38,720 nt of DNA from a virus (lineage: Duplodnaviria > Heunggongvirae > Uroviricota > Caudoviricetes): IMG/VR virus record IMGVR_UViG_2563366844_000005, one strand, 5' to 3'. The position numbers and the translations under genes were made by a program. The notes below the pieces were generated by a model. It was not told where the DNA came from, ran no database searches, and worked only from the letters and a program-made list of their open reading frames with translations. The first letter of the stretch is position 1; the number at the start of each line of letters is the position of its first letter. Below are positions 2,029 to 38,720 of the stretch, piece by piece.

Positions 2029-4382
2029 TATATTTTTTCTCCCTGCTGCGCTGCTGTTAATTCCCTGTGCCAGATACGCAAATTTCGGACGTGCCCGAAC
2101 AGATGGCGGCTGCCACTGGACGCCTTTCCACCGATAGTGATGAATCCACCAGTGTACTTCTGATTTTGATATGCTGAAGTTGTCAATGCCCCGAAAACAC
2201 CATTGACAACAACTTGCAACCTTCTGTCTTCCGAAAATAAAAAACCAACGATATTATGGCGCTTAGTTCTTGCAAGAGTACTATTATACTCTTTAATGGC
2301 ATTTGAGTCGCCGTTTGTGATTATCGCTTTATTACCACGAGTAGCAAAACCAAGGTACATATAACTTTGATTTATTATATCTGTGGAATCTCCCGTTGTT
2401 GTTATATCCAGAATCCTTGCTCCACCAGTAATATTAGGCATAAAGCCAGGTTCCCATAGTGTATTTACTTCAACAAGACAACTTATTGCAGGAGTTGACC
2501 AGTTTAATTTTACAGGGACAGTAACCATATCACTGGCTCTTGTTGCACCAGTTCCCGACGTAATGATAAATGATGACGCATGAGTTCCCTTTTCAAACTG
2601 AGGGGTGGTCATCATTATCTGGTCTCCGGCCTGTATGGAACGCCCGTCCGCAGCTATCTCAAAACGAGCGTGAATACTTTTCGGTTCTGGTGATTTATAT
2701 GTAAATTCGATGCGTAACCATCCGTTAGCTTCTCTGTATATGACATGATTGACAGCATCCTCACCATTCGGAATTTTTAATATTTCTCCGGTGCCGCAAT
2801 CTATATATGACTCAGCAACCAGTGTGTTGCTTGTTCCGTCATCGTTCACATAAGCTACGCGAGGTCTGATTAATATATCAGTCCCTTTAACACGGCACGA
2901 AAGTGTAACTGATTCATTTGCATCAACACTGATTACACGGGGATAACCACTCGTAATTAATGTCGCCCGGCCATCCAACGGAGTTCCCGTAACCGTGAAT
3001 GTTCCATATGTAAACCCATACTCGTCAGTTTCACTAGTCACCGATAATGCAGATTTCAGATAATTCCATAAGGATGGTGTATTACTATAATAAAGTGTGT
3101 TTGTTCTCTGCCCCTCTATTAACAACCCCATTTTTTCAAATCTGGGTTCATCTACAGACGCAATACAAAGCCCCCCGGATTTATCAATATATGTCGCTTC
3201 AGATGCCCGCTTAAACTTAACAATCTTGTCGCCAGGCATTGTTATTTCATCATCACCAATAACAATCTTTTTATATGATGGCGAAAAGCCCGTAATCATA
3301 TCCAGTGAATCGTTAAACGGTATCCACACATCAGGCAGCGGTTGTAAGACATATTTATACGGCTCTGCTGCCTGGCTTGCATACTCTCTGGCTGCATCTT
3401 CACTTGCTTTAGCTGCCGTCTGGCTTGCTGCCGATGCTTTCGCTGAGTTCGCAGCCGCTGTTTCGCTCACCTTTGCGTTGGTTTCACTGGTTTTTGCTGC
3501 TTTTTGGCTGTTGGCTGATGCAGTGGCAGAAGCATCCGCCGCACTTGCAGAACCAGCTGCGGCACTCTCGCTTTGGGCCGCTGCATCCTGACTGTTTTTC
3601 GCCGCAGTTTCGCTGGCTTTGGCATTCGTTTCACTCGTCTTCGCTGCTTTCTGGCTGTTAGCCGCAGCAGTTGCTGATCCAGCAGCTGAAGTCGCAGAAC
3701 CGGCAGCGGCACTCTCGCTTTCAGCTGCTGCAACCTGGCTGTTTTTTGCCGCAGTTTCACTGGCTTTGGCATTCGTTTCGCTGGTCTTCGCTGCCGTCTG
3801 GCTGGACTTTGCGTTGGTTTCGCTCGTCTTTGCGGCTGTCTCGCTGTTTTTCGCGTTGGTTTCTGATTTTTTGGCTGCTGTCGCGGAGTTTGCCGATGCA
3901 GTCTGCGAGGTCGCTGCCGCCTGTGCGCTGTTAGCTGCATTCGTTTCTGAGGTTTTCGCCGCGTTCTTCGATGATGCCGCTGCAGTTTCGGATTTCTTTG
4001 CCGCCGCTGCGCTCTGAGAGGCGGCTTCGGCGTTGCGTGCCGCTTCTTCCACCATTGCCTCAAAACGGCGCAATGCCTCCGGCATGACATCATCTTCCGT
4101 CATGGCACCGAGAAAATCATTCAGCGTACCTGGTCTGGAACCTTCATAGACGGTAATGGTCCCGGCATGTGAAGGCGGAAAACCTTCAACCAGCAGGGTG
4201 ACGCTGTACTGGCCATACTCAACATCCATGCTGTAACGTCCGGCTTCATCCGGATTTTCAGAAGCCACCGTGTTCACCAGTACCGTGGTGCTGTTACGCT
4301 TTGCCTTCAGTTGAATAGTGCAGTTCTGTATTGGTTTTCCCGCACCATCTTTCAGCACACCTGAGATTTTTACTGCTGCCAT
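2028..4382 (-). CDS. stf: Side tail fibre protein (lambda Stf-like)
   Basis: N-terminus MAAVKISGVLKDGAGKPIQNCTIQLKA matches the lambda Stf family as recalled; first ATG at 4382 (track start 4388 is GTG) with GGAG upstream; internal Ser/Thr/Ala/Lys-rich tandem repeats. Confidence 0.85.
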   Translation of the reverse strand: MAAVKISGVLKDGAGKPIQNCTIQLKAKRNSTTVLVNTVASENPDEAGRYSMDVEYGQYSVTLLVEGFPPSHAGTITVYEGSRPGTLNDFLGAMTEDDVMPEALRRFEAMVEEAARNAEAASQSAAAAKKSETAAASSKNAAKTSETNAANSAQAAATSQTASANSATAAKKSETNAKNSETAAKTSETNAKSSQTAAKTSETNAKASETAAKNSQVAAAESESAAAGSATSAAGSATAAANSQKAAKTSETNAKASETAAKNSQDAAAQSESAAAGSASAADASATASANSQKAAKTSETNAKVSETAAANSAKASAASQTAAKASEDAAREYASQAAEPYKYVLQPLPDVWIPFNDSLDMITGFSPSYKKIVIGDDEITMPGDKIVKFKRASEATYIDKSGGLCIASVDEPRFEKMGLLIEGQRTNTLYYSNTPSLWNYLKSALSVTSETDEYGFTYGTFTVTGTPLDGRATLITSGYPRVISVDANESVTLSCRVKGTDILIRPRVAYVNDDGTSNTLVAESYIDCGTGEILKIPNGEDAVNHVIYREANGWLRIEFTYKSPEPKSIHARFEIAADGRSIQAGDQIMMTTPQFEKGTHASSFIITSGTGATRASDMVTVPVKLNWSTPAISCLVEVNTLWEPGFMPNITGGARILDITTTGDSTDIINQSYMYLGFATRGNKAIITNGDSNAIKEYNSTLARTKRHNIVGFLFSEDRRLQVVVNGVFGALTTSAYQNQKYTGGFITIGGKASSGSRHLFGHVRNLRIWHRELTAAQQGEKI
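3390..3995 (-). repeat. In-frame tandem repeats inside the side tail fibre gene
   Basis: Protein shows reiterated KTSETNAKASETAAKNSQ-type units; the same periodicity creates many overlapping alternative-frame ORFs on both strands in the track. Confidence 0.8.
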
Positions 4383-4392
4383 ATCCACTCCA

Positions 4393-4420
4393 CAAAAAAG
4401 CCCGCCTGAACCGGCGGGCT
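4393..4420 (-). terminator. Intrinsic terminator between lom and stf
   Basis: Minus-strand hairpin AGCCCGCC / GGCGGGCT followed by six U. Confidence 0.6.
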
Positions 4421-4446
4421 GTCATAACACTGTGTTACCTGGCTAA

Positions 4447-5046
4447 TCAGAATTTATAACCGACACCCACGATGAAACCGTCAGTGCGCCAGTCACCACT
4501 GCCGGAGCCTTCATAAGCAATATCAATGGCCACGGATTCGGTCGGGTTAAACTGCACGCCAGCTCCCCACGCCAGAGACGTGTTGCTGTGGCGATCATCA
4601 TCACTTCCGGTCAGCACATCGTTCGTTTTCCCCTTGCTGTCAGTTACGCGGAGATAATCACCGGAAAAAGTCGAAACACGGCTGTAAGCCACACCTGCCA
4701 TCGCATAAGCACTGAACCATTCATTCACGCGTACAGATGGCCCCGCCATCATGCTGAACCAGCGGTTACGCACTGAATCTTCATGCCAGCGGGTATCGCT
4801 GTAATGCGTTTTTTGCTCATCTTTGGCATTGGCATAACTGAATGACGTCACCAGCCCCAGCGTGTCCGTAAATTCATAACGGTATTTCACGTTAATGCCC
4901 TTCAGGTCATCACTGCCTGGCATATCAGTATGGGCCTGAAGATACCCGGCGCTTAGTGTGGACTGATGCTCTGCTGCGCTCGCTGGCGTACCAGCGGCAA
5001 CCAGCCAGACTACTGCGGACAGAATAACAGCACATAATTTACGCAT
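4447..5046 (-). CDS. lom: Lom/Ail/PagC-family outer-membrane beta-barrel protein
   Basis: 199 aa; signal peptide ending ASA; C-terminal aromatic residue (GVGYKF); sits immediately after J as in lambda; own RBS; terminators on both sides. Confidence 0.9.
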   Translation of the reverse strand: MRKLCAVILSAVVWLVAAGTPASAAEHQSTLSAGYLQAHTDMPGSDDLKGINVKYRYEFTDTLGLVTSFSYANAKDEQKTHYSDTRWHEDSVRNRWFSMMAGPSVRVNEWFSAYAMAGVAYSRVSTFSGDYLRVTDSKGKTNDVLTGSDDDRHSNTSLAWGAGVQFNPTESVAIDIAYEGSGSGDWRTDGFIVGVGYKF

Positions 5047-25848: not shown

Positions 25849-25951
25849 CGAAGTTACCTCTCTTCACCAAGAATTCGGTAATAAAATAACTTGTGGCGCT
25901 CTCGTTTTTATGCCGATAAAATAAACGGTCCACTTTCAAATGGAGCGATTC

Positions 25952-26872
25952 ATGATTTTTCTCAGAACTGAAAACGGCATCGAGAAACTTGAAAACTGGG
26001 AGGAAATTATATCCAGACCAAACTTTGTCACCGCTATAGACAAAGGAGTTCAACAACTTGAGGAGATAATTGGTTACTACAAATTTAAAGAAGAAATCCA
26101 CTGTGGTCTAACTGGTTGCAACCAACCACATCAAATGGGTTATATTGTAAAAACATCTAGTGGCATTGAAACCAACATCGGAAATAAATGTGGTAAAAAC
26201 GAATTTGGTGTGGAATTTGGTGAAAACGTTCTTAGTTTCAATAAACTTATGCAACTCGAAACCAATCGGGAAATTATTAGTACCGCAAAAAGTAAATGTG
26301 AAGCGTGGCAAAAAAATATTGAAACGATACGAAATATCAAACCCACAATAGATTATCTATCTTCTACCATCGAAAATAGTAAAAATTCCAATTACGCCGG
26401 AAGACTTGGTGCTACAGAAATTCGTTTTTTGACCAAGAGCCAGACAGGCCTTGTAACCCTTTCTGAAGTGGAAACTGATAAGAATACCAAAACAATTCTG
26501 TTCGCAATGAATGAACACATGCGCGAGTCTGGAGAAGCAATAAGTGAATTCTACATAGGAAAAGTATCATTTAGTCATGTTCTTTTACCAGAAAACAATC
26601 TTCGTGATTTTTTTGTTGCGCTCAAAGAAGATCTAAAAAAAATTCAGTGTATTGATCTACAAACAGCCCCAAGCCCAGAAATTTCTAATGTTGCCAAAAT
26701 TGCCAGTTCAATCGAAGAACGAATCAAACGATTAAAAAAACTGAAACATGAAGCCAGTAAATTCCTAACTAAAAAAAATCTGCGTCCCATCGCAAACAAA
26801 ATAAAATACTCATCGACAGCGGATGAACTTGAATTCCATAATTTCGAACGCTTTTTAAACGGGCTGAAATGA
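25952..26872 (+). CDS. Hypothetical 307-aa protein, AT-rich moron antisense to the late operon
   Basis: Uninterrupted ORF in a visibly AT-rich block; second ATG at 25952 has a GGAG SD at 6 nt; Lys/Glu/Asn/Ile-rich; no family recognised; stable hairpin immediately 3'. Confidence 0.65.
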   Translation: MIFLRTENGIEKLENWEEIISRPNFVTAIDKGVQQLEEIIGYYKFKEEIHCGLTGCNQPHQMGYIVKTSSGIETNIGNKCGKNEFGVEFGENVLSFNKLMQLETNREIISTAKSKCEAWQKNIETIRNIKPTIDYLSSTIENSKNSNYAGRLGATEIRFLTKSQTGLVTLSEVETDKNTKTILFAMNEHMRESGEAISEFYIGKVSFSHVLLPENNLRDFFVALKEDLKKIQCIDLQTAPSPEISNVAKIASSIEERIKRLKKLKHEASKFLTKKNLRPIANKIKYSSTADELEFHNFERFLNGLK

Positions 26873-26986: not shown

Positions 26987-27817
26987 TTAGTTCACATCAT
27001 CACCAAAACTTGTCACATTCTGAAAAGCAATATCGGCCTTATGCTCTTCCTGGTGACAAATGTCAACCAGAGAATCAAGAAACGGCTTCCAATTACGTGT
27101 CCATGTCCTGACATGTAGCTCGGGTATCCGCTTCAGTACAACTTTATATACTGTGGTAGACGGTATCGTGGAAAATCCATTTCCGCTACAACGTTCGCAG
27201 ATTTTAAACACTGGCACACCACGCTCGCTTGTGGCTTTGCGGTCCAGTACCTCTCCCTTTCCACCACAACGACACCTGGCACTTATCACTCCCTTCCCTT
27301 TACATACATCGCAAACGACTGGTACAACTTCTGTTACCTCTGTCCATTTCTCCCAGTCTGACGGTCGAACAGCACGGGAGCGACTGGCCCAATATGGTGC
27401 TTTACCCCATGGGTATGAAACCTTACGAATGACCTGCTTACGGGGTGTTAGTCCGGTACCACTGCAACTATGGCATGTTACGCTGGTGGACGCCGATCGG
27501 GAATACTCAGCAAAAGCAAACTGCGCCAGCACCAGCATACACCAGCCAAATTCACCACCAGCTGCTTTACGCACATTCTTCGGTGCAATTTCCATCGCGT
27601 GACGCGCCAGCGCCTGGACTGCCATCTGCTCATCAGTCTTGCTGATACCTGCCTTCCCGAAGAAGGCCACCAGACCAAACCGCTCACGATTGCTGGTGGT
27701 ACCAATAGCCGCCATAACATCGGTGCCTGTAAGACGTTCCGGAGAGGTTCCTTTCACATCATCGCCGATATACATTCCCTGAGGACTGAAGTATTTTAGG
27801 GATGCCTCAAGCTTCAT
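26987..27817 (-). CDS. Putative late-gene regulator at the Q position, with DnaJ-type zinc-finger repeats
   Basis: 276 aa; four Cys repeats (CHSCSGTG, CDVCKGKG, CRCGGKG, CERCSGNG); last gene before the late leader and lysis genes. Q-family membership not verified. Confidence 0.4.
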   Translation of the reverse strand: MKLEASLKYFSPQGMYIGDDVKGTSPERLTGTDVMAAIGTTSNRERFGLVAFFGKAGISKTDEQMAVQALARHAMEIAPKNVRKAAGGEFGWCMLVLAQFAFAEYSRSASTSVTCHSCSGTGLTPRKQVIRKVSYPWGKAPYWASRSRAVRPSDWEKWTEVTEVVPVVCDVCKGKGVISARCRCGGKGEVLDRKATSERGVPVFKICERCSGNGFSTIPSTTVYKVVLKRIPELHVRTWTRNWKPFLDSLVDICHQEEHKADIAFQNVTSFGDDVN

Positions 27818-31302: not shown

Positions 31303-31716
31303 TGTGCTGCTCCCGTGCTGATGAGATAATAATTTCGTGATGTGGTTTTCATGGATTCCCCCTCACATGGCTGGTGGCCTCCCCAAAGGCTGCCAGCCCC
31401 CTTTCTGATTCAGCTCCTCTGAAAAATCACTCTTCCAAGAAGAACCCTTTTCGTTTCTCAAGGCCTGGGCGCTTTGTACTACCTTGCTGATACGAGCGTT
31501 TTTTTAAATTGCGCCCTTAAGACAGTGATCTACTTAACCAATGGATCTCTCCTGTTGGAAAAGACCCTATTCCTGCCCCTACACCCAATCCCCCCCTACC
31601 CCCCCTTTCCCTCTTCCCCATAAAAACGTACTACTTACCTAGTACATATGAGGAATTGGGTCAGTTGGTTGCCAACCTGAACAGGCACCTTTAAGCCTGC
31701 TTCTGTTCGGGTGCCT

Positions 31717-32025
31717 TTAAACCCGAAACAATGAGGAGCGCGATTGCGATCCAGCCAGGGGCGGCTGAGTTGTATACCCCTGTAAAGCCCTGCCCTGATT
31801 TCTCACAAACAAGCGGAGCCTTGTGTTTGCTTCGTGCCTTGCTCTGTTCTCCTTGCGGAATGAAACAGGCTCAGCGTCAAAAGTGATTTCGTATACCTCC
31901 GCATATTTCAGGGCGACCTTCCGTCTCAGTGACGGAGGCAGCCCCTGTAACTGCTGCTGAATCCACTCTTCGTCTGCCTGGCAGTACCTAGATGGCATCT
32001 CTGTCTGAACGTAATTCTGGGACAT
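31717..32025 (-). CDS. Hypothetical protein at the cII position
   Basis: 102-aa ORF with AGGTGAAGGG SD, overlapping the cro-like 3' end; the C-terminal third is low-complexity, so the real product may be shorter. Confidence 0.35.
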   Translation of the reverse strand: MSQNYVQTEMPSRYCQADEEWIQQQLQGLPPSLRRKVALKYAEVYEITFDAEPVSFRKENRARHEANTRLRLFVRNQGRALQGYTTQPPLAGSQSRSSLFRV

Positions 32026-32275
32026 ACAAGCCCTTCACCTCCCCCGTGCGCGCTAAGCTTGGATGTGGAAAAAGCTCTGGTAGGTCTGGACGAAATTCAT
32101 ACGCTTGGATCTTTCCGTCGACAGCTGCAACCAATAACGGCACAAATTCTGGTGAAATCTTGTTCTTGCAGTTCAACCAATCGCAGACTGTTGACTGGGC
32201 CTTTCCGCATCGCTTGGCTAAGGCTTGCTGACTTCCAAGAATCTCAATAGCTTTCTCTATGGCTTTATGTTTCAT
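31988..32275 (-). CDS. Cro-like HTH transcriptional regulator
   Basis: HTH segment SQQALAKRCGKAQSTVCDWLN; divergent from the S24 repressor across an operator-containing intergenic region; ATG at 32275 has an AGGAGA SD. Confidence 0.65.
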   Translation of the reverse strand: MKHKAIEKAIEILGSQQALAKRCGKAQSTVCDWLNCKNKISPEFVPLLVAAVDGKIQAYEFRPDLPELFPHPSLARTGEVKGLYVPELRSDRDAI

Positions 32276-32342
32276 AATCGCATCTCCTATTGAGCGCATA
32301 ATAGCAACAGGAAAAGCGATATTCAACGTTAAACCTAGAACA

Positions 32343-32362
32343 TTTATCGGAAAGCCGATAAA
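32343..32362. promoter_or_regulatory. Candidate operator palindrome in the cro/repressor intergenic region
   Basis: Perfect inverted repeat TTTATCGG-AAAG-CCGATAAA; CGATAAA/CCGAT half-site variants recur near the pL-like promoter. Confidence 0.5.
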
Positions 32363-32394: not shown

Positions 32395-33087
32395 ATGACA
32401 TTTTCAGAACGACTTGATTTAGCTATGCGCAACGCAAAATTTACGCAAGGTAGGCTGGCCAAAGAAGTGGGTATGGCTCAGTCCAGTGTTAATCAACTAC
32501 TTAACAAAGCCAACGGTTCCAGAAAAACAGTCGAAATAGCAAAAGTTTTGGGCGTTAACCCGGAATGGCTCGCATCGGGTGTTGGCCCAATGGAAATCGT
32601 GACCTCTGCAGACTCACACCAAATACGTAACATTTCTGAAGATTGGGTTACTGATTCGTATGTCGTGGATGTTTTAGACATCAGATATAGTTGCGGACCT
32701 GGTAGTTATAACTCTGATTTTCCTGACATTGTCAGATCTATAGCGATAGAACCAGGATACGCATCAAGAGTTTTTGGCGGCAGACCAGCATCAGCAATCA
32801 AAGCAATAAACGCCCACGGCGACAGTATGAAAGGCACAATAGACCCTGAAGACTTGGTATTTGTAGATGTATCAGTTCGCACATTTAATGGTGATGGTAT
32901 ATACGCCTTTACATACTCTGGAACATCGCACATCAAAAGACTTCAAAAAATCAAAGATACTCTAACGGTGATATCTGACAACCCAGCTTACAAGGATTGG
33001 GCTATCGAACCTGAAGACTTCGAACAACTTCACATTGACGGAAAAGTAATTGTCAGTTGGCCCATGACACTACACCGTTTTGCATAA
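32395..33087 (+). CDS. CI-type prophage repressor (N-terminal HTH, C-terminal S24 LexA-like peptidase)
   Basis: HTH FTQGRLAKEVGMAQSSVNQL; C-terminal domain with GDSM (Ser nucleophile) and downstream Lys; GAGGGGAGG SD. Confidence 0.9.
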   Translation: MTFSERLDLAMRNAKFTQGRLAKEVGMAQSSVNQLLNKANGSRKTVEIAKVLGVNPEWLASGVGPMEIVTSADSHQIRNISEDWVTDSYVVDVLDIRYSCGPGSYNSDFPDIVRSIAIEPGYASRVFGGRPASAIKAINAHGDSMKGTIDPEDLVFVDVSVRTFNGDGIYAFTYSGTSHIKRLQKIKDTLTVISDNPAYKDWAIEPEDFEQLHIDGKVIVSWPMTLHRFA

Positions 33088-33105: not shown

Positions 33106-33132
33106 GCCCACTCTTAAGTGGGCTTTTTTTTT
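33106..33132 (+). terminator. Intrinsic terminator after the repressor gene
   Basis: GCCCACT-CTTA-AGTGGGC followed by nine T. Confidence 0.7.
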
Positions 33133-33151
33133 GGAAAAATCGATAAACCGA

Positions 33152-33180
33152 TTGACAGGCAAAATCGGTAAACCTATTAT
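33152..33180 (+). promoter_or_regulatory. Candidate early-left (pL-like) sigma-70 promoter with flanking operator half-sites
   Basis: -35 TTGACA, 17-bp spacer, -10 TATTAT; CGATAAACCGAT immediately upstream and AAATCGGTAAA inside the spacer. Confidence 0.55.
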
Positions 33181-33229
33181 CATGACATAGGTATCGAACT
33201 CACCAAAGCAATTATAGAGGATGAGAAAA

Positions 33230-33640
33230 ATGTCATCGTATATGGGATTACCAACAAATCAGCACGATGCTCTTGAGAATATTCAGCTCTTAGTAGGGGC
33301 TGGTGCACTACTGTATAGCAGCAATAACCCTGAGTTAATTGAACTTGCCAGCTCCATCCTGTCTGTAACTCAAAAATATAGCCTCACCGCGTCACGTTTA
33401 TGCAAACAAAATTTAGCTATTAATTCCCAGAATCGGATTCGCACCCAACGCGAAGCCTGCGGCTTAACAACCGCCGAACTCGCCAGGCTGCTCGATCTCG
33501 ATGAAGAAATTATCTCCCAGTGGGAGAGCGGAGAGTACGAACCAACCATCAGCATGCTTATCCCTCTGGCTAATGTTCTTGGCTGTGATCCAATGTGGTT
33601 ATTGACTGGTGCTTATAAACAAAATCAGGAGGAAGCATAA
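33230..33640 (+). CDS. HTH (XRE-family) DNA-binding protein, first gene of the early-left operon
   Basis: C-terminal half contains a Cro/C1-type HTH (LTTAELARLLDLDEEIISQWESG); N-terminal roughly 70 aa unrecognised; lacks the Arg-rich motif of N proteins. Confidence 0.6.
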   Translation: MSSYMGLPTNQHDALENIQLLVGAGALLYSSNNPELIELASSILSVTQKYSLTASRLCKQNLAINSQNRIRTQREACGLTTAELARLLDLDEEIISQWESGEYEPTISMLIPLANVLGCDPMWLLTGAYKQNQEEA

Positions 33641-33641
33641 G

Positions 33642-33833
33642 ATGAAAATGTTCAAAGGCCTCACCAACGAACCGGAAACAGCTTTTCATCACATTGCCGT
33701 ACTGCTTGAAGCGGGGTTAATCATTTCGGCTTCCGGTGATGAAGAATGTGATGAACTTTCGGATGACATCTTTTTACTGGCACAGCAATACGCCAGAAGC
33801 GCATGCGATGCATTTAAGGAGCAAAGAACATGA
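33642..33833 (+). CDS. Small acidic hypothetical protein
   Basis: 63 aa from the ATG at 33642; AGGAGGAAG SD. Confidence 0.5.
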   Translation: MKMFKGLTNEPETAFHHIAVLLEAGLIISASGDEECDELSDDIFLLAQQYARSACDAFKEQRT

Positions 33834-34021
33834 AAACTCCATTAAATATTCTTGAGGAAGTGGCGGCACAAATAAAAGAGAATACATCAATGCTTGAATT
33901 TATATTTAAGAATTCGCCCGACTCAGGAGAGACAGACGATTATTTATGCTGCCTCATTCGCTCCATGAATAAGACCTGTGAAATGGCTTACGAGTATATA
34001 GAAACACTACGTAACGAATAA
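33830..34021 (+). CDS. Small acidic hypothetical protein
   Basis: 63 aa; ATGA start/stop overlap with the upstream gene. Confidence 0.5.
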   Translation: MKTPLNILEEVAAQIKENTSMLEFIFKNSPDSGETDDYLCCLIRSMNKTCEMAYEYIETLRNE

Positions 34022-34205
34022 AGAATTCTCAAAAGAAAATCACACATAAAAGCATGACGGCCTCTGGTCGGGGGTTTTCACAACCAGAAAATAATGGTGA
34101 TGCATGAAAAACAGAAGTGCTTATAAAACCGCATTATTAATGGCTAATGCAGGATACTGGTCAGTTGCAATACTGTTTCTCAGGAAAGCATACGGGAAAT
34201 AACAA

Positions 34206-37406: not shown

Positions 37407-38720
37407 ATGGATAAAGTCAAATATCCAACAGGCGTCGAAAACCACGGCGGCACATTACGCATCTGGTTTAATTTTAAAGGTAAACGTGTCAGGGAAAATC
37501 TTGGTGTCCCTGACACTGCCAAGAACAGGAAGATCGCCGGGGAACTACGGACATCGGTATGTTTTGCCATCCGCACAGGAAGCTTTGATTATGCTGCACA
37601 GTTCCCTGACTCCCCTAACCTTCAGGCTTTTGGGGTAAGTAAAAAAGAAATTACGGTGAAAGAACTTGAAGAAAAATGGCTGGATCTGAAACGAATGGAA
37701 ATCTCTGCAAATGCATTCAATCGCTATGAATCCGTTGCAAGAACGATGGTTCCGAAAATTGGAGGCAGCAGACTGGTGTCATCGGTAACCAAAGAGGAAT
37801 TGCTGTATATCAGGAAAGAATTGCTGACCGGGTATCAGAATTCAACGAAAAACAAAGCAGCAGCAAGAGGACGGAGCGTCGTTACAGTAAATTATTACAT
37901 GACGACAATCGCTGGAATGTTTCAGTTTGCTGCAGATCACGGTTACTTAGAAGCAAATCCCTTCCAGGGAATTAAGCCTCTTAAAAGAGCCAGGGCAGAG
38001 CCAGATCCGCTAACTCGTGACGAGTTTATTCGCCTGATAGATGCTTGCCGACATCAGCAGACGAAAAACCTGTGGTCATTGGCTGTGTACACAGGAATGC
38101 GTCACGGTGAACTGGTCTCCCTGGCCTGGGAAGATATCGATCTGAAAGCAGGAACTATTACTATCAGGCGCAATTATACGAAACTCGGTGAGTTCACTCT
38201 ACCTAAAACTGAAGCAAGTACAAACAGGGTTGTGCATCTTATCCAGCCCGCTATCAGTGTCCTGAAAAATCAGGCTGAAATGACAAGACTGGGTAAGCAG
38301 CACCACATCAAGGTTCAACTACGTGAATATGGACGTTCAGTGAATCATGAATGTACTTTCGTATTTAACCCCCAGGTGGTTAGAAAAAGCAAACAGGTCG
38401 GTTTTATCTACAAGGTAGATTCTATTGGCGACTCATGGGAAACAGCCATTAAGCGTGCGGGCATCAGGCACCGGAAAGCATACCAGTCACGACACACTTA
38501 TGCGTGCTGGTCATTATCTGCCGGAGCAAACCCAAGCTTCATTGCCAGCCAGATGGGTCATGCAAGTGCCCAGATGGTGTTCAATGTATACGGAGCATGG
38601 ATGACTGACAGCAATGCAGAACAAATCGCAATGCTGAATCAGAAGCTGGCGGATTATGTCCCAATGATGTCCCATGGTCACCAAAGTGACACAATAGACT
38701 TATTAAAATCAGTGGGTTAG
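37407..38720 (+). CDS. int: Tyrosine site-specific integrase
   Basis: 437 aa; C-terminal catalytic region with conserved Arg, His-x-x-Arg and Tyr (..RHTYACWS..HA..VYGAW); GGAGGT SD; stop codon is the last triplet of the window. Confidence 0.9.
   Translation: MDKVKYPTGVENHGGTLRIWFNFKGKRVRENLGVPDTAKNRKIAGELRTSVCFAIRTGSFDYAAQFPDSPNLQAFGVSKKEITVKELEEKWLDLKRMEISANAFNRYESVARTMVPKIGGSRLVSSVTKEELLYIRKELLTGYQNSTKNKAAARGRSVVTVNYYMTTIAGMFQFAADHGYLEANPFQGIKPLKRARAEPDPLTRDEFIRLIDACRHQQTKNLWSLAVYTGMRHGELVSLAWEDIDLKAGTITIRRNYTKLGEFTLPKTEASTNRVVHLIQPAISVLKNQAEMTRLGKQHHIKVQLREYGRSVNHECTFVFNPQVVRKSKQVGFIYKVDSIGDSWETAIKRAGIRHRKAYQSRHTYACWSLSAGANPSFIASQMGHASAQMVFNVYGAWMTDSNAEQIAMLNQKLADYVPMMSHGHQSDTIDLLKSVG

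Follow-up and report, generated by a model that had tools for sequence, protein, structure and literature searches.

The early-left operon of a lambdoid Escherichia coli prophage opens with a predicted hairpin-HTH regulator and two free-standing relatives of the hairpin domains of its family

The early-left operon of the prophage sequence analyzed here (IMG/VR record IMGVR_UViG_2563366844_000005; its full 38,720 nucleotides are referred to as the window) opens with three genes, designated g1, g2, and g3, the last two of which encode relatives of the N-terminal domains of the regulator family to which the first one belongs. The window is a nearly complete lambdoid-type Escherichia coli prophage, with phi467 as its closest sequenced phage, followed by phiP27-like phages and several Shiga toxin (Stx)-converting phages. 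The g1 gene encodes an XRE-type helix-turn-helix (HTH) domain preceded by an alpha-helical hairpin; judged from sequence comparisons, g2 is a paralog of this hairpin domain and g3 is a homolog of the N-terminal domains of sister regulators. By these homologies, both tiny acidic proteins are free-standing versions of the N-terminal domains of the family, which means that the three genes are not independent and suggests a regulatory module acting through protein-protein contacts. No study of these genes came up in literature searches, and proteins of these types are annotated in databases just as 'HTH domain-containing' or 'hypothetical', although they have been sequenced many times. The hairpin relationships and the mosaic rules described below are new observations.

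Relationship of g2 and g3 to regulator N-terminal domains

The g1 protein, identical to WP_016231771.1 from Escherichia sp. KTE114, matched the Pfam family HTH_3 (PF01381) over residues 70-124 with an E-value of 3e-13, above the gathering score, and this region corresponds to the five-helix lambda-repressor-like fold. The architecture described in the initial annotation of this DNA, a domain of about 70 residues followed by a C-terminal XRE-type HTH, was thus confirmed. The same annotation had called the N-terminal part unknown and had proposed structure prediction of the three proteins. This part is indeed a separate domain, but it is no longer unknown in kind: AlphaFold2 (AF2) predicted for it a two-helix hairpin, homologous to g2, with helices at residues 11-29 and 34-~57 (pLDDT ~90), followed by the HTH at residues 70-126. 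A hairpin was also predicted for g3, with helices at residues 4-28 and 33-62 (pLDDT 92, pTM 0.75).

Pairwise BLASTP comparisons among g1, g2, and g3 revealed nothing, and the homology became visible with profiles alone. The family phrog_4587, to which g2 belongs, also matched residues 1-55 of g1 (E 1e-6), and the use of g2 as a tblastn query led to the N-terminus of a g1 homolog, the gp50 regulator of phage ASU11. A hidden Markov model (HMM) built from 18 free-standing hairpins only matched residues 5-59 of g1 with 39.3 bits (E 1e-10); besides g1, the sole open reading frame (ORF) of the window matched by this model was that of g2 itself. In hhalign comparisons, the N-terminal domain of g1 (type A in the classification given below) was related to g2 at 93%, the type B domain to g2 at 97.7%, and the type C domain to a small C-type protein at 97.5%. 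As for g3, it was related at 97.4%, with 36% identity, to the type E domain of the sister regulator P0099, whose HTH is the same as that of g1. It has to be mentioned that the g2 protein of the window is 39.6% identical to N-type B and 28% identical to its own N-type A.

No homology was detectable between the g2 and g3 families (hhalign 0.1%), and on this basis the idea of a single family for all three hairpins was dropped in favor of a common fold class with no demonstrable common ancestry. Sequence searches of the PDB with g2 and g3 returned nothing meaningful, and neither Pfam nor PDB sequence matches were found for g2, g3, or the N-terminal domain of g1.

The three genes are coupled: g1 and g2 meet at a TAAgATG junction, g2 and g3 overlap by ATGA, and each gene has a good Shine-Dalgarno sequence (Table 1). 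An alternative ATG for g1 at position 33221 leaves no spacing to the GAGG motif. The isoelectric points (pI) of g1, g2, and g3 are 4.47, 4.45, and 4.45, with net charges of -8, -7, and -6, respectively. The description of g2 and g3 as two coupled acidic proteins of 63 residues holds, and g1 is no less acidic than either of them. The ratios of non-synonymous to synonymous substitution rates (dN/dS), determined from alleles of related loci, were 0.04 for g2, 0.09 for g3, and 0.20 for the N-terminal domain of g1, which indicates that the three genes are under purifying selection. Further downstream, the apparent intergenic gap 3' of g3 contains a micro-ORF for a basic product of 32 aa (34104-34202, plus strand; MKNRSAYKTALLMANAGYWSVAILFLRKAYGK; pI 10.4) that is unannotated in phi467. 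Its product is conserved in nearly all related loci as three to four sequence types, each ending in ..LRKAYG(K/R), and whether it is part of the hairpin module is uncertain.

The sequence places these genes, by its layout, at the start of a CI-controlled early-left operon of lambdoid type: a leftward cro gene, a rightward cI gene of the S24 type, a strong terminator, the promoter with its operators, and then g1, g2, and g3, with xis and int at the far end. The initial annotation had placed a consensus-like promoter ahead of the operon. Both the promoter, which matches the consensus at 11 of 12 positions, and the operators are present where expected, and this promoter is the top-scoring site of the region 31.3-38.7 kb, located after the cI terminator. 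A 14-bp palindrome (ATCGnTAAnCCGAT) brackets it in two copies, and a third copy was found only in the gap between cI and cro when the whole window was searched with at most one mismatch. Since the palindromes that flank the promoter recur only between cI and cro, the early-left promoter is under the control of CI.

Regulator family and fusion pattern of the hairpins

A word-indexed search with g1 identified 158 relatives, nearly all of them from E. coli. The HTH of this family is nearly invariant (motif QREACGLTTAELARLLDLDEEII.QWESGEYEPTISMLIPLANVLGCDP; ~90% conserved) and is found behind at least eight types of N-terminal domain. These types were grouped with hhalign into A, B, and C, together with g2 and the small 'C-type' protein; E, together with g3; and D, together with F; types G and H are orphans. 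They come from at least three unrelated sequence families. The regulators contain either one HTH copy (~136 aa) or two (213-231 aa). Comparison of the 3' end of g1 (33590-33640) with the relatives P0019 and P0025 showed that single-HTH forms, g1 included, resemble in-frame deletions of the tandem-HTH forms; the apparent deletion endpoints are the repeated ..(G/H)CDP.. motifs that close HTH1 and HTH2, and both forms are abundant in E. coli. Among 5,426 complete E. coli genomes, 354 contained the HTH cassette of g1. For one relative with tandem HTHs, more than 1,000 contigs were identified, many of them belonging to Stx1/Stx2 converting phages.

A full HMMER scan of 1.84 billion protein representatives with a profile of the g2-type hairpin showed that this family consists of 57 clusters only. 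Its members either stand alone, with 60-90 aa, or form the N-terminal part of proteins in which one, two, or three XRE HTH domains follow; a scan of ten multi-domain members revealed no other partner. In terms of gene fusion, such exclusive pairing with the XRE HTH argues that hairpin and HTH act together.

Mosaic organization of the related loci

We compared 95 related loci; the co-segregation of CI and N-terminal domain types was derived from 81 of them and the shared 12-mers from 83. The regulator gene lies directly 3' of cI and the terminator/promoter region in all of them but L090, in which a reverse-strand gene is inserted after cI. The only widely shared DNA is the HTH cassette: most megablast matches start at position 33437 of the window, which is exactly the boundary between hairpin and HTH, and the phiP27-like ones stop near 33611. 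In addition, the 12-mers common to more than 75% of the loci are all located inside the HTH-coding sequence, at 33440-33510. These match boundaries and shared 12-mers indicate that the HTH cassette is a mosaic joint.

The two sides of this joint follow different rules. On the left side, the type of N-terminal domain and the type of CI co-segregate 1:1, and each immunity type has its own promoter/operator region. On the right side, small-protein modules are freely shuffled, whichever regulator type precedes them; these modules are the g2 plus g3 pair, a 121-aa protein with a C-type hairpin end, the 66-aa short form of this protein, and an 80-aa ORF followed by the 121-aa protein. The possibility that the 80-aa ORF, found 5' of the small hairpin gene in part of the type D loci, encodes a free D-type hairpin was rejected, as hhalign detected no homology. 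A free hairpin gene of the g2 superfamily is present in 93 of the 95 loci, in the early-left operon and 3' of the regulator wherever a regulator is present. Pairs of g2-type and g3-type genes with a stop-start overlap were also observed in the distant prophages L089, L090, and SaltyDalty, at 37-60% identity; in L089 and SaltyDalty these pairs occur without a hairpin-HTH regulator. The repressor of L089 is a non-S24 protein of 139 aa with a helical C-terminus.

A possible module of regulator and hairpin mimics

On established principles of protein structure, an isolated two-helix hairpin of 55 residues cannot bury its own hydrophobic face, so that the hairpin proteins must pack into helical bundles. 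Tentatively, and by analogy with the SinR/SinI system, we propose, as the most economical of the models considered, that the hairpin-HTH protein and the free hairpins associate in mixed helical bundles, a possibility that may well turn out to be wrong. Transcribed together from the early-left promoter under repression by CI, the three genes would then act as a single early regulatory module, in which g1 would be an XRE-type HTH protein whose N-terminal hairpin serves as an oligomerization or partner-binding domain. The free hairpins g2 and g3 would bundle with g1 and with each other, and the mixed bundles would set the amount of g1 in the active (dimeric) form. We infer the hetero-oligomerization, the antagonistic sign of the free hairpins, and the binding of g1 to DNA. 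Regarding the target of g1, the ~90% conservation of its HTH among phages with unrelated operators indicates that it is not the immunity operators; it would be some site or partner shared by these E. coli phages or present in their host.

SinI of Bacillus subtilis mimics the helical oligomerization domain of SinR (PMC3163267). This system, together with SlrR/SlrA, is the closest one in logic, with no family membership implied. Two of its features are present here, namely an XRE HTH joined to a two-helix domain (predicted with AF2) and an adjacent small protein homologous to the helical domain. On the other hand, the domain order is reversed, with the hairpin N-terminal in g1, and the hairpins have no sequence relationship to those of SinR/SinI. 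The Bacillus genes are separately controlled, whereas g2 and g3 are transcribed together with the regulator and coupled to it in translation. Two free hairpin families occur here, and the N-terminal domains of many sister regulators are unrelated to any free hairpin. 

Several observations weigh against a module of this kind. The same g2 and g3 alleles (98-100% identical) follow regulators that have N-types A, B, and C, whose hairpins are just 23-40% identical; this sharing means that the regulator does not co-vary with 'its' small proteins and argues against a tightly matched pair. Moreover, 34 of the 95 loci have a free g2-type hairpin but no g2-type or g3-type fused N-terminal domain. These are mainly loci of types D, G, and H, whose N-terminal domains have no detectable homology to any free hairpin, and mimicry therefore cannot be a general rule. 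The gene pairs of SaltyDalty and L089 lack any hairpin-HTH regulator to be mimicked. In addition, co-transcription and coupling are more in line with a stoichiometric complex than with an antagonist under separate control, such as SinI. Finally, binding of g1 to DNA appears doubtful from the sequence of its HTH, which has a net charge of -6 and a DEEIISQWE recognition helix.

A second parallel is found in arbitrium Bacillus phages, in which AimX blocks the oligomerization of AimC, a situation likened by its authors to SinI/SinR (bioRxiv 10.1101/2025.11.23.689978). The likeness lies in the combination of a phage HTH regulator with a very small helical protein, for which direct binding was reported there. 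However, the lysogeny repressor there is AimC itself, with AimX under induction by AimR, whereas in the window a separate S24-type CI represses the module; no homology connects AimC/AimX with g1, g2, or g3.

The TF-smORF modules of linear plasmid-like phages consist of a transcription factor (TF) that activates a divergent small ORF (smORF), whose product inactivates the cognate cI and leads to prophage induction (Silpe et al. 2023, PMC10432266). As in our case, an XRE-type TF of a temperate phage stands beside a protein of ~60 aa that belongs to no known family, and sequence-diverse modules share a common logic in a context of polylysogeny. Unlike the divergent genes of those modules, g1, g2, and g3 are co-directional and coupled in one operon, and homology links the small proteins to a domain of the TF. 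Because they are located downstream of CI-controlled operators, they cannot initiate induction as the TF-smORF modules do.

If the hairpin-mimic reading is true, these genes would be a Gram-negative, lambdoid counterpart of control of the SinR/SinI and AimC/AimX types, and they would provide a handle on the early development of these Stx phages, which ultimately gates toxin release.

Alternative explanations

A first alternative, which we consider rather unlikely, is that g2 and g3 are independent early effectors acting in host takeover, in anti-defense, or as inhibitors of host proteins. Their homology to regulator N-terminal domains would then reflect the repeated recruitment of a handy dimerizing hairpin by the neighboring HTH gene. 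This would account for the g2-type and g3-type genes that stand without a hairpin-HTH regulator in SaltyDalty and L089 and for the shuffling of g2 and g3 independently of the regulator type. It is also in line with their acidity (pI 4.45), with the further small acidic helical ORFs that follow in related operons, and with the strong constraint on both genes (dN/dS 0.04-0.09). However, no similarity to known effector, defense, or anti-defense families was found in Pfam, NCBIfam, PADLOC, or the PDB, and the HTH as sole fusion partner seen in the 1.84 billion proteins ties the function of the hairpin to an HTH protein. PADLOC gave sub-threshold generic HTH hits only for g1 and none for g2 and g3, and NCBIfam likewise gave no family, no dedicated anti-defense library being included in these searches. 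The host-takeover or anti-defense role suggested in the initial annotation for the small acidic proteins thus found no supporting evidence, and their homology to regulator domains points instead to a regulatory module.

In a second alternative, g1 is a protein-binding antirepressor or adaptor and not a DNA-binding regulator. The immunity-linked hairpin would recognize an immunity-specific partner, either CI or Cro, and the HTH domain or domains, conserved and acidic, would engage a common host or phage protein; a commitment feedback would follow the firing of the early-left promoter. Phage TP901-1 provides a comparable case with MOR, an HTH-fold antirepressor that binds CI. The net charge of the g1 HTH is -6, vs +5 for P22 C2, +4 for the 434 repressor, and +4 for the CI of the window. 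Its recognition helix reads DEEIISQWE, vs SNVAISQWE in P22 C2, with Asp and Glu at base-contacting positions. With this charge and this acidic helix, binding of g1 to DNA would be deduced from the fold and is not a safe assumption. In contrast to the DNA-binding domains of P22 C2 and the 434 repressor, the HTH of g1 is C-terminal, and it occurs in one to three tandem copies in the family. No candidate for a conserved DNA site as the target of g1 was found within +/-3.5 kb in the 83 loci. The HTH cassette does contain a perfect palindrome of 6 bp around a loop of 3 nt (TCTCCCAGTGGGAGA; 33513-33527, plus strand); it codes for ISQWES and is probably a coincidence resulting from conserved codons.

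An adaptor would fit these properties of the HTH as well as its conservation across heteroimmune phages, by which it cannot read their operators, and the 1:1 association of N-terminal domain type and CI type in the 81 loci would follow from recognition of CI. Nevertheless, adjacency alone predicts such linkage, given a distance of ~140 bp with no shared sequence for recombination. Distant members of the family carry ordinary neutral or basic CI-like HTHs (net charge +2 in P0149 and 0 in P0157), and HTHs in tandem are a more typical feature of DNA-binding proteins. Altogether, we regard the adaptor as clearly unlikely.

The possibility that the free hairpins are inter-prophage decoys is a long shot. 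Produced early, they would poison, through mixed bundles, the hairpin-HTH regulators of co-resident or superinfecting rival prophages, which would escape by swapping their N-terminal hairpins, and the hypervariability of this domain would be the result. The presence of at least eight N-types from at least three unrelated families on a single HTH conserved at ~90% agrees with this explanation, as does the fact that the hosts are polylysogenic E. coli strains that produce Shiga toxin (STEC). In most loci the free hairpin is nearest to a foreign N-type; in the window, g2 is closer to type B than to its own type A, and g3 is of type E. However, random shuffling among many types would also give mostly non-self pairs, and type C regulators often precede a type C free hairpin, at 48-50% identity.

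The likeness of the operon to the lambda N/nut system is one of position only, g1 being the first gene after the CI-controlled leftward promoter; it differs in that g1 is acidic with an HTH fold and in lacking an Arg-rich motif, boxA/boxB, and strong operon terminators. No 15-residue segment with at least six Arg was found in any ORF of the region 31-38.7 kb, boxA (YGCTCTTWA) had no match in the 38.7-kb window, and no Rfam element was detected in it. No boxB-like hairpin was found in the g1 leader (~45 nt), whose folding was modest in comparison with shuffled sequences (z -2.0), and the region after g3 (34020-34110) folded no better than shuffles (z -0.6). A put- or nut-like RNA or a terminator in the leader or after g3 was rejected on these scores. 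As regards intrinsic terminators, none was convincing on the plus strand from 33180 to int or on the minus strand from cro to Q, where weak pattern hits did not exceed the shuffle expectation; with no strong terminator before int or Q, an N/nut system may not be needed.

Every tested defining feature of N/nut, namely the Arg-rich protein, the nut site, and the terminators, thus failed here, and in this respect the initial annotation, which had noted the lack of an N-like Arg-rich motif and proposed a search for nut-like sites, was borne out. The 'in place of N' aspect is real but already known, since N-less Stx and lambdoid phages have been published, and in Eru1 phages N, CII, and CIII are all missing (PMC8044961). 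The N-less E. coli prophages that have the module described here at the N position form a large group, and the module is common among STEC prophages. That g1 is a functional substitute for N, as a protein antiterminator, or for CII/CIII is scarcely credible: its position as first early-left gene, the label 'CII-like regulator' of phrog_4836, and the 'putative CII repressor' records of some homologs would speak for it, but the N/nut features and strong terminators to override are missing and the leader has only ~45 nt, there is no Pfam Phage_CII/CIII match at E<0.1, g1 lies on the cI side whereas lambda CII lies to the right of cro, and the 'CII-like' labels are unverified annotation transfers.

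Other features of the locus

The coordinates of the features are given in Table 1. Downstream of g3, the operon continues with more small genes and with those for an ORF6N/ANT protein, DUF5406, DUF4222, an excisionase (DUF1233), and, at 37407, the integrase.

Table 1. Location of the genes, domains, and control elements in the window, and of related gene pairs in other prophages.
Feature	Position	Strand	Remarks
g1	33230-33640	+	136 aa; GAGG 9 nt 5' of ATG
g1 N-terminal alpha-hairpin domain, type A	33230-33436	+	aa 1-69; within immunity-linked mosaic block
g1 XRE-type HTH domain and short tail	33437-33640	+	HTH aa 70-128; 33437-33611 is the cassette conserved across heteroimmune prophages
g2	33642-33833	+	63 aa, predicted free-standing alpha-hairpin; AGGAGG 9 nt upstream; phrog_4587 E 1.6e-33
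g3	33830-34021	+	63 aa, predicted free-standing alpha-hairpin of a second family; AAGGAG 8 nt upstream; phrog_6882 E 1.9e-40
Early-left promoter	33152-33180	+	TTGACA-17-TATTAT; consensus match 11/12
Operator palindrome ATCGATAAACCGAT	33139-33152		the two promoter palindromes overlap the -35 hexamer and spacer
Operator palindrome ATCGGTAAACCTAT	33164-33177		as above
Intrinsic terminator ending the cI transcript	33106-33131	+	7-bp GC-rich stem at 33106-33123, then T9
cI-type repressor	32395-33087	+	230 aa; HTH and Peptidase_S24 (Pfam E 7.5e-17); phrog_4 E 1.4e-53
Operator-like palindrome ATCGGAAAGCCGAT, oR copy	32346-32359		cI-cro gap; same 14-bp motif as the promoter copies
cro (YdaS-like)	31988-32326	-	
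Q-type antiterminator	26987-27817	-	PF03589 E 6e-52
g2-type/g3-type pair, L089	3501-3916		
g2-type/g3-type pair, L090	4208-4992		
g2-type/g3-type pair, SaltyDalty (L004)	3989-4611		

Other observations concern the part of the window ahead of cI. A 102-aa ORF (31717-32025, minus strand) shares 38 nt with the 3' end of cro and occupies the position of lambda cII, with no significant Pfam match. Between this ORF and the helicase gene, the rightward early operon (minus strand) contains a non-coding gap of 414 nt (31303-31716) with a long G-rich stretch on the minus strand (ggggaagagggaaagggggggtagggggggattgggtgtagggg), which might be an origin or a regulatory region. Finally, an ORF of 310 aa with no Pfam match (25940-26872, plus strand) runs on the other strand than Q and the lysis genes, at the place where Stx phages have their cargo, and may be a moron.

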